Sequence record: AF208841.1
Source: Escherichia phage AR1
Strand: one strand, 5' to 3'
DNA length: 4,991 nt
The notes beneath the pieces are model-generated. The model saw only the letters and a program-made list of their open reading frames with translations, was not told the DNA's origin and searched no databases. Both the position numbers and the translations under genes were made by a program. Positions 210-3,521 of the stretch are shown here, in pieces. Positions within the stretch are counted from its first letter, which is position 1; each line of letters begins with the position of its first letter.

Positions 210-3200
210 ATGGCTACTTTAAAACAAATACAATTTAAAAGAAGCAAAACGGCAGGTCAACGTCCAGCTGCTTCAGTATTAGCCGAAGGTGAATTGGCTA
301 TAAACTTAAAAGATCGTGTACTTTTTACTAAAGATGATCAAGGAAATATTATTGACTTAGGTTTTGCTAAAGGCGGTAGTATTGACGGGAATGTTATTCA
401 TAAAGGCAATTATAACCAAACTGGTGATTATACTTTAAACGGTACATTCACCCAGACTGGTAATTTTAATTTAACTGGTATTGCTCGAGTAACTCGCGAT
501 ATTATTGCCGCTGGGCAGATTATGACTGAAGGCGGAGAACTTATTACAAAAAGTTCAGGAACGGCACACGTTCGTTTTCATGATTCCGCCGACCGTGAAC
601 GCGGTATTATTTTTTCTCCTGCTAATGACGGTTTAACTACACAAGTAGTTAACATCAGAGTTCGAGATTACAAAGCTAGTTCAGAAAGCACTTTCGCTTT
701 TAATGGAAATGGTTTGTTTTCTTCACCAGAAGTTTTTGGGTGGAAATCTGTATCAACTCCGGTAATTTATACCAATAAAGTTATCACCAATAAAAAAGTT
801 AAAGATGATTATGACATCTATTCGATGGCAGACAATGTTCCATTGTCTGAAATCACTACTGCTATTAATCATCTTCGTGTTATGCGTAATGCAGTTGGTT
901 CTGGTATTTTCCATGAAGTTAAAGATAATGATGGAATAACATGGTATAGTGGAGATGGATTAGACGCTTATCTTTGGTCATTTACTTGGAGCGGCGGAAT
1001 TAAATCAAGTCACTCAATTTCCATCGGTTTAACACCCGGACCTAAGGATTACTCAATATTAGGACCGTCTAGTATCGCTTTAGGAGATAATGATACTGGA
1101 TTTAAATGGCATCAAGACGGATATTATTTCAGTGTTAACAATGGCACAAAAACGTTTTTATTTAGTCCTAGCGAAACAACTAGCCTAAGAAAATTTGTAG
1201 CTGGATATTCTACTAATGGAACCGATTTAACTACTCCTCCGACTGAAAACTATGCTCTTGCTACTGTCGTGACATATCACGACAATAACGCGTTTGGAGA
1301 TGGTCAGACTCTTTTAGGATATTATCAAGGCGGTAACTATCATCATTATTTCCGGGGCAAGGGCACTACAAACATTAATACTCACGGCGGTTTGTTAGTT
1401 ACTCCAGGCATAATTGACGTTATTGGTGGTTCTGTTAATATCGATGGTAGAAATAATGCTTCTACAGCGATGTTTAAAGGTAACACAACAGGTAGTAGTT
1501 CTGTGGATAACATGACAATTTCTGTGTGGGGTAATACATTTACTAATCCTAGCGAAGGTAATCGCAAAAATGTCATGGAAATTTCCGATGCAACTAGCTG
1601 GATGAGCTATATTCAAAGACTTACTACTGGTGAAGTAGAAATGAACGTTAACGGTTCATTTGAATCTTCTGGTGTTACTGCTGGAAATAGAGGAGTTCAC
1701 ACAACAGGCGAAATTTCATCTGGAGCAGTGAATGCTCTTCGCATTTGGAATGCAGATTATGGAGTCATTTTTAGACGTTCAGAAGGTAGTCTTCATATTA
1801 TTCCAACTGCTTATGGTGAAGGCAAAAATGGTGATATTGGTCCACTTCGTCCATTTAGTATAGCTTTAGATACTGGTAAGGTTGTTATTCCAGATTTAGA
1901 ATCAAGTTATAACACGTTTGCTGCAAATGGCTACATTAAATTTGCTGGTCATGGGGCTGGTGCCGGCGGTTATGATATTCAGTATTCACAAGCTGCTCCT
2001 ATTTTCCAAGAAATCGATGATGCTGCTGTAAGCAAATATTATCCTATTGTTAAACAGAAGTTTTTAAACGGTAAAGCTGTCTGGTCTTTAGGTACTGAAA
2101 TTAATTCAGGTACATTTGTTTTACATCATCTAAAAGAAGATGGTTCACAAGGCCATACATCAAGATTTAATGCTGATGGTACAGTTAATTTCCCCGATAA
2201 CGTTCAAGTCGGCGGCGGTGAAGCTACTATTGCTAGAAACGGTAATATCTTCTCTGATATTTGGAAAACATTTACTTCTGCCGGAGAAACCACAAATATT
2301 CGCGATGCAATAGCTACTCGTGTTTCTAAAGAAGGCGACACGATGACTGGTAAATTGACTTTATCAGCAGGCAATGATGCTCTCGTTTTAACTGCGGGCG
2401 AAGGTGCTTCATCACATATCCGTAGTGATGTAGGTGGTACAAATAACTGGTATATAGGCAAAGGTAGCGGCGACAACGGTCTAGGTTTTTACAGTTACAT
2501 TACACAGGGTGGTGTATACATAACAAATAACGGCGAAATAGCGCTTTCTCCTCAAGGACAAGGAACATTTAATTTTAATAGAGACCGCCTTCATATAAAC
2601 GGTACACAATGGACTGCGCACCAGGGTGGTGGCTGGGAAAACCAATGGAATCAAGAAGCTCCGATATTTATAGATTTTGGTAATGTTGGTAATGATAGTT
2701 ATTATCCTATTATTAAAGGAAAATCTGGTATTACTAATGAAGGATACATATCTGGCGTTGATTTTGGTATGCGACGTATTACTAATACCTGGGCACAAGG
2801 TATTATTCGTGTAGGTAACCAGGAAAATGGTTCTGATCCACAAGCTATCTATGAATTTCATCACAATGGAGTTCTGTATGTTCCTAACATGGTTAAAGCT
2901 GGAGCAAGATTATCAGCTGGCGGTGGTGACCCGGTGTGGCAAGGCGCATGCGTTGTTATTGGTGATAATGATACTGGATTAGTTCATGGTGGTGACGGCC
3001 GAATCAATATGGTTGCAAATGGAATGCATATTGCTTCATGGTCGTCCGCTTACCATCTCCATGAAGGTCTTTGGGATACCACTGGTGCTTTGTGGACTGA
3101 ACAAGGAAGAGCTATTATTTCTTTTGGTCATTTAGTCCAACAGAGCGATGCCTATTCCACATTTGTTCGAGATGTTTATGTCCGTTCTGATATTCGTGTT

Positions 3201-3521
3201 AAAAAAGACCTTGTTAAATTTGAAAATGCTTCTGAGAAGCTTTCCAAAATTAACGGTTACACTTATATGCAGAAGCGAGGCCTAGATGAAGAAGGCAATC
3301 AGAAATGGGAACCTAACGCCGGTTTAATTGCTCAAGAAGTTCAAGCTATTTTACCAGAATTAGTTGAAGGTGACCCTGATGGCGAACGTTTACTTCGTTT
3401 GAACTATAACGGTGTAATTGGTTTAAATACAGCTGCAATCAATGAGCATACTGCAGAAATTGCAGAACTTAAATCAGAAATCGAAGAACTTAAAAAAATA
3501 GTTAAATCATTGTTAAAATAA
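210..3521 (+). CDS. 37: Long tail fibre distal subunit gp37, 1103 aa, T2-type with a C-terminal self-cleaving chaperone domain
   Basis: Single uninterrupted ORF. The N-terminus [49 protein letters not shown] matches the T4 gp37 N-terminus as I recall it. Further conserved blocks ([13 protein letters not shown]...HYFRG.G..NINT and [16 protein letters not shown]....IIPT) also match remembered T4 gp37 segments. The protein is Gly/Asn/Thr-rich with low-complexity fibre character and ends in a TAA TAA double stop. Confidence 0.93.
3186..3518 (+). other. C-terminal intramolecular chaperone / peptidase S74-like autoproteolytic domain of gp37 (about 110 aa)
   Basis: The motif S-D-I-R-V-K (Ser at codon 3186-3188, Lys at 3201-3203) has the Ser-x4-Lys spacing of the catalytic dyad in endosialidase and T5 L-shaped-fibre chaperone domains. 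It is followed by [38 protein letters not shown] and a terminal amphipathic helix ([21 protein letters not shown]). Confidence 0.8.

Follow-up and report, generated by a model that had tools for sequence, protein, structure and literature searches.

The long tail fibre distal subunit precursor (gp37) of Escherichia phage AR1 ends in a Peptidase S74 / intramolecular chaperone (IMC) domain. This domain occupies residues 993–1103, i.e. the last 111 of 1103 residues and the extreme C-terminus of the tail fibre protein. By analogy with homologues, the IMC very probably (probability about 0.9) trimerizes gp37, cleaves itself from the fibre and unmasks the docking site for the adhesin gp38. The identity of the domain, the alignment of its catalytic dyad, its predicted fold and the presence of a gene for the gp38 partner were all observed in the DNA analysed here, a stretch of 4991 bases (hereafter the window) that is 99.7% identical in nucleotide sequence to phage AR1 over its full length. 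AR1 is a member of the genus Tequatrovirus, and its host is Escherichia coli O157:H7. In the RefSeq annotation of AR1 (NC_027983), the window holds the 3' end of gene 36 (1–201), gene 37 (210–3521), gene 38 and the start of the holin gene t; the six-frame list of open reading frames matches this annotation for gene 37. The gene (210–3521 including the stop codon; plus strand, as for all gp37 and gp38 features given below) encodes a precursor of 1103 residues and 119.2 kDa.

The C-terminal domain is recognized by the Pfam family PF13884 (Peptidase_S74, 'Chaperone of endosialidase'), which matches residues 993–1052 with an E-value of 3.2e-14. The first-pass annotation of the window, made from the sequence alone, had proposed that gp37 ends in a chaperone domain of the endosialidase/T5 type and had suggested a profile search of the C-terminal region as a check. 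This search scored the region at 53.4 bits (48.5 bits within full-length gp37), above the gathering cutoff of 22 bits, and the proposal is further upheld by matches to the gp37 chain of phage S16 (6F45_A) and to the folds of MyRF and the K1F endosialidase chaperone (3GW6). The Pfam match covers positions 1–57 of the 58 in the model, with model position 1 falling on Ser993. The motifs picked out at first pass lie exactly where they had been placed: SDIRVK spans residues 993–998 (3186–3203), with its serine at 3186–3188 and its lysine at 3201–3203, NGYTY spans residues 1015–1019 (3252–3266) and GLIAQEVQ residues 1038–1045 (3321–3344), while the coding sequence ahead of the stop codon extends to 3518. 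Together, the Pfam match and the strands of the structural model delimit a Peptidase_S74 core at residues 993–1052 (3186–3365), with a β-hairpin at 1017–1038 associated with NGYTY and GLIAQEVQ.

Sequence searches place the domain in a broad family. In a single-sequence phmmer search of the PDB, S16 gp37 was the sole convincing match to the IMC (6F45_A; E = 6e-38). A profile built from 18 homologues, collected in a search that yielded short proteins alone (83–215 aa), reached more remote PDB entries, namely the intramolecular chaperone domain (ICA) of MyRF (7DC3; E = 2.4e-13), a tail fibre (8JOV; E = 6.4e-10) and the neck-appendage chaperone of phage GA-1 (3GUD; E = 1.1e-3), the deposited chain of which has the counterpart of Ser993 as its first residue. 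At E ≤ 0.01, this 18-homologue sequence profile did not extend to T5 pb1 (4UW8) or endoNF (3GW6); T5 pb1 was aligned directly from the T5 genome, and endoNF was reached via the fold search. A bare Ser-x4-Lys pattern is unspecific, because it occurs four times within gp37, and on this basis the serine, the lysine and their neighbours might be taken for a chance resemblance with no domain behind it. However, SD.R.K occurs just once in the protein, and the chance reading is refuted by profile, sequence and fold matches with E-values from 1e-6 to 1e-38, as well as by the presence of the domain in 1017 phage records (tblastn against phage genomes), including T5-like, Klebsiella, Vibrio, cyanophage and Thermus phages.

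The Ser-x4-Lys dyad suggested at first pass likewise holds, with both residues aligned to experimentally defined residues of homologues. In a direct alignment of the window gp37 with S16 gp37, T2 gp37, T5 pb1, GA-1 and MyRF, Ser993 (3186–3188), which is predicted to act as the nucleophile and to begin the released domain, coincides with the proven serines of T5 (Ser1264) and S16 (the serine after the cleavage site), and with Ser1243 of T2. Lys998 (3201–3203), the predicted general base of the dyad, coincides with Lys1269 of T5, and the columns of D994, R996 and K998 are invariant among these relatives. In the separate alignment of homologues, the position of Lys998 is a lysine in all sequences that cover the site. 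The MyRF crystal chain 7DC3 has an alanine (ADLRAK) opposite Ser993.

The predicted fold, in which a mixed α/β body bearing a β-hairpin leads into a long C-terminal helix, agrees with this assignment. An AlphaFold2 monomer model of residues 981–1103 (mean pLDDT 85.7) shows β-hairpin strands at 1017–1025 and 1031–1038, a short helix, and a single continuous helix at residues 1066–1102 (3405–3515; fragment positions 86–122), with pLDDT above 90 along most of the latter. Compared against the PDB with Foldseek, the model best matches the MyRF ICA (7DC3; E = 1.6e-6, TM 0.72, 25% identity), followed by the 'Intramolecular Chaperone' of the K1F endosialidase (3GW6; probability 0.94–0.99). The model thus contains the coiled-coil-like terminal helix predicted at first pass, and in its best heptad register 8 of the 11 a/d positions are I, L, V, M or F. 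This pattern is consistent with the trimeric coiled coil seen in structures solved for the family (PMC4690869; PMC8326128), and the modelled helix presumably adopts the same arrangement.

Family precedent indicates where gp37 would be cut. In T5 pb1, the Thr1263–Ser1264 bond is cleaved and Ser1264, which lies beside Lys1269, departs with the chaperone; an S1264A substitution blocks cleavage, and an arginine of the neighbouring chain ties cleavage to correct folding of the trimer (PMC4690869). In MyRF, cleavage requires trimerization and is abolished by either S587A or K592A (PMC8326128). For S16 gp37, published accounts state that the last 113 residues form an IMC that, after trimerization, is autocleaved between the serines of DLNVS^SDRRIKK (^ denotes the cleaved bond; PMC7917993, summarising Dunne et al. 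2018; PMC7289586), while a cleavage at DVYIR^SDGRLKI has been predicted for T4-like phages of Yersinia (PMC7917993). The context in AR1, DVYVR^SDIRVKK, is almost identical to that of the Yersinia phages. The predicted scissile bond is accordingly placed between Arg992 and Ser993 (3183–3188), which aligns with VS^SD of S16, IR^SD of T2, T1263^S1264 of T5 and residue 1 of the released GA-1 chaperone (PMC7917993; PMC4690869). The first-pass annotation had put the end of mature gp37 at about residue 993 instead of 1103; a shortened C-terminus does fit family precedent, but since the family cuts the bond N-terminal to the serine, the endpoint is expected to be Arg992 and not residue 993. By this analogy, mature gp37 should comprise residues 1–992 (210–3185; 106.7 kDa) and end in ...RDVYVR992, with a piece of 111 residues and 12.5 kDa (993–1103; 3186–3518) released as the IMC fragment, the extent of which follows from the profile, homologue and fold matches.

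From these homologues we infer that gp37 trimerizes, cuts itself, sheds the IMC and lays bare the docking site, and the sequence of events may be envisaged as follows. The IMC would put three gp37 chains in register through its C-terminal three-helix coiled coil and β-hairpin, and would nucleate folding of the trimeric β-helical fibre tip, beginning on its C-terminal side. When this tip has folded, Lys998 would activate Ser993 in each chain for attack on the Arg992–Ser993 bond, and the 12.5-kDa IMC would come off. What is left, a flat trimeric tip with ...RDVYVR992 at its end, could then bind the three-helix N-terminal domain of a single gp38, the adhesin that is encoded directly downstream and that actually binds the receptor. 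The IMC might alternatively fold and trimerize the fibre and then be cut off by another protease, of the phage or the host, as opposed to its own Ser-Lys dyad. In the account of PMC3157838, what the early work on T2 established is 'proteolytic cleavage' alone, not autocatalysis. Yet the conserved serine and lysine of AR1 gp37 align with residues whose mutation abolishes cleavage of T5 pb1 and MyRF (PMC4690869; PMC8326128), and autocleavage is the process described for S16 gp37 (PMC7917993; PMC7289586), making removal by another protease highly improbable.

Self-cleavage by the IMC also accords with the gene order of the region. Gene 38 (3551–4330 including the stop codon) encodes a T2-type adhesin of 259 residues, for which the ATG at 3551, preceded by GGAGG at 3541–3545, is the most plausible start. 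The protein matches the Pfam families GP38 (PF05268; E = 2.6e-73) and Gp38_N (PF21721; E = 2.4e-21) and shares 48% identity with T2 gp38. Its Trp7, Trp20 and Trp35 align with Trp9, Trp22 and Trp37 of T2 gp38, and gp38 is known to dock by plugging three conserved tryptophans, which sit where its N-terminal helices reach their tips, into the end of gp37 (PMC6851490). The T2-type arrangement suggested at first pass is thus borne out, with a GP38/Gp38_N adhesin gene directly downstream of gene 37 and an S74 domain also present in T2 gp37. Beyond gene 38, the holin frame opens with MAAPRISLSP... from about position 4361 and continues past the end of the window. A hairpin between genes 37 and 38 was considered as a regulatory element and rejected, its stability being not above that of shuffled sequence (z = -0.61). 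A single match to a late promoter (TATAAATA), on the minus strand within gene 37, is at chance level. No terminator-like sites were found in 3300–4500, and an Rfam scan of the window gave no matches.

The structure of the S16 fibre tip bears on whether the IMC leaves the virion at all. PDB 6F45 shows gp38 seated at the base of the gp37 tip (PMC6851490), and IMC autocleavage is described for S16 as the step that exposes the docking surface (PMC7917993; PMC7289586). The homologous gp37 distal tip in AR1 comprises residues 912–992 (2943–3185), as identified by phmmer, with the docking role taken from S16 (PMC6851490). The IMC could conversely remain in the virion as a permanent trimerization cap, with gp38 bound elsewhere or alongside. 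Uncleaved variants could exist in the family, given that in the homologue alignment the metagenomic protein P0009 has a proline in place of the serine at the 993 position, and therefore cleavage competence is not required of every family member. However, the SD.R.K motif is intact in AR1 gp37, the gp38-docking surface of the S16 tip is described as exposed only once the IMC has been cleaved off (PMC7917993), and the peptidase domain lacks density in a cryo-EM structure of a related S74-bearing fibre (PMC12143355). Retention of the IMC is likewise highly improbable, and release by self-cleavage remains the favoured reading.

Among characterized systems, S16 is the closest parallel (PDB 6F45; Dunne et al. 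2018). It shares the gene order, with gene 37 followed by the gene 38 adhesin, and its gp37 is 57% identical over the IMC, with homology reaching about 80 residues upstream into the tip; residues 912–1103 of AR1 gp37 match positions 25–204 of 6F45_A with E = 2.5e-44 (phmmer). Both proteins carry the motif SD.R.KK.....FEN...GYTY...AGLIAQEV...LNYNG, both gp38 adhesins have the same N-terminal domain with three tryptophans, and the released domains are of similar length (113 residues in S16, 111 predicted here). The two systems differ in the P1 residue, which is serine in S16 (DLNVS^S) and arginine in AR1 (DVYVR^S). The AR1 tip also carries a 12-residue insertion relative to S16, and the two differ in the host and receptor specificity borne by gp38.

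The T-even phages themselves differ in whether gp37 bears this domain. C-terminal proteolytic cleavage of T2 and T6 gp37, after which the fibre is capped by gp38, is described in PMC3157838, citing Drexler et al. (1986). T2 gp37 has a Peptidase_S74 match at residues 1243–1300 (E = 3.3e-15) and a GP38 adhesin gene downstream, and its cleavage context (NVYIR^SDIRLK) is nearly identical to that of AR1 (DVYVR^SDIRVK). The T2 protein is nonetheless longer, at 1341 residues, with a shorter IMC (99 aa), a shorter terminal helix and only about 29% identity to AR1 gp37 over the C-terminal 253 residues. By Pfam scan, T4 gp37 has Collar and Phage_fiber matches and no S74 match, and T4 gp38 matches no Pfam family, whereas AR1 gp37 has an S74 match and neither Collar nor Phage_fiber. 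Judged by these domain matches, AR1 gp37 ends in S74 and not in a needle/collar receptor-binding tip of the T4 type. Gp37-like fibres of Straboviridae without the T4 needle have been described as ending, like that of S16, in a peptidase S74-like domain that cleaves itself (PMC12143355).

More distant relatives share the architecture and diverge in what the cleavage achieves. T5 pb1 has the aligned Ser-x4-Lys dyad (S1264/K1269) and is cleaved before the serine (PMC4690869), and, as predicted for AR1 gp37, its domain combines a β-hairpin with a C-terminal coiled coil at the C-terminus of a trimeric fibre or spike. However, the two are just 13% identical in direct alignment, with a long insertion in the T5 domain, and the unmasked tip of T5 binds the receptor itself, whereas AR1 would, by analogy, depend on a separate adhesin. 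The eukaryotic MyRF ICA (7DC3), to which the model is structurally most similar, shares the dyad (S587/K592; PMC8326128), but its cleavage detaches a transcription factor from the ER membrane and is not a step in the maturation of a virion fibre.

One element of the endosialidase and T5 mechanism has no counterpart at the same place in AR1. In those proteins, an arginine of the neighbouring chain at position -14 to the serine (R1250 in T5, PMC4690869; R897 in endoNF) acts as a folding sensor and oxyanion helper. In the alignment, position -14 of AR1 gp37 is Ser979, and no arginine occurs at the endoNF/T5 sensor spacing. The sensor arginine is not universal in the family, since MyRF employs another residue in its place (PMC8326128). 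Nearby candidates in AR1 are R987, which together with D988 is common to S16 and absent in T2, and R992, which is common to T2 and absent in S16. Around the scissile bond, the RD at -6/-5 and the Arg at P1 vary among the S16, T2 and AR1 subtypes, and they do so in step with the subtype of the gp38 N-terminus. It may be speculated that T-even gp37 couples cleavage to correct folding through another trigger than the endosialidases and T5, with the same few residues serving as both sensor and gp38 dock, and with a lock-and-key pairing of subtypes constraining IMC activation; this scheme is tentative and on balance unlikely.

The S74/IMC domain in gp37 is already known in close relatives (S16 and T2) and is detected by a standard Pfam scan. 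The analysis adds no biology beyond what has been published for S16, T2 and T5, and its value lies in annotation and engineering only. For AR1-like phages of O157:H7, mature gp37 would, by analogy, be annotated as residues 1–992 (approximately 107 kDa) in place of 1103. Recombinant or chimeric fibres and gp38-swap constructs should keep the IMC in the precursor and would be expected to lose it in the product.

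The genes for the distal long tail fibre subunit (gp37) and its adhesin (gp38) have their junction at 3519-3550. Tandem stop codons (TAATAA, 3519-3524) close gene 37. After them comes a small hairpin with a UUCG tetraloop (GGGGC-UUCG-GCCUU, 3527-3540), which adjoins the gene 38 Shine-Dalgarno sequence (GGAGG, 3541-3545). The hairpin folds no more stably than shuffled sequence (z = -0.61), and no terminator-like site was called in a scan of 3300-4500. In its 3' arm, the window is two C short of the AR1 RefSeq genome (NC_027983), where GGGGC-UUCG-GCCCC pairs perfectly.

Further differences between the two records lie within the coding regions. 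There are four amino-acid differences in gp37, at residues 152, 401, 897 and 1060 (window 664, 1411-1412, 2898 and 3387-3388), and two in gp38, at residues 122 and 229. Residue 1060, inside the C-terminal intramolecular chaperone (Peptidase_S74) domain, is arginine in the window and alanine in the reference; alanine also occupies this position in the close homologues P0001 and P0004. Given that two of the four gp37 differences are adjacent-dinucleotide changes and that the CC loss falls in a GC-rich hairpin, the discrepancies do not look like true variation; sequencing compression in either record appears the better account.

P0001, P0004 and a third homologue of this domain, P0003, are 170-aa entries titled 'tail fiber domain-containing protein [Escherichia coli]' and encoded on contigs of ~166-167 kb. 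They correspond to the C-terminal ~170 residues of gp37, beginning at an internal methionine (MVANG...), and their source records have the look of T-even phage genomes submitted under the name E. coli, in which the annotation splits gene 37. A metagenomic S74-domain protein (P0009) reads RPDRRVK instead of RSDRRVK, placing proline at the catalytic serine; either the protein is a variant that may not cleave, or the change may be an error in the sequence.

Long glycine runs in gp38 (3551-4330), for example GGGGGGGG and GGGGG, alternate with variable segments in a polyglycine-sandwich architecture, as in T2/S16-type adhesins. T2 gp38 shares 48% identity with its counterpart in the window, the differences lying mostly between glycine motifs. 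Within gp37, residues 449-551 (window 1554-1862) match the Pfam family Gp34_trimer (PF21446; E = 4.3e-8). The same family matches T2 gp37, with the T4 gp37 match falling below the cutoff. These profile matches indicate a shaft module that the distal half-fibre (gp37) has in common with the proximal one (gp34).
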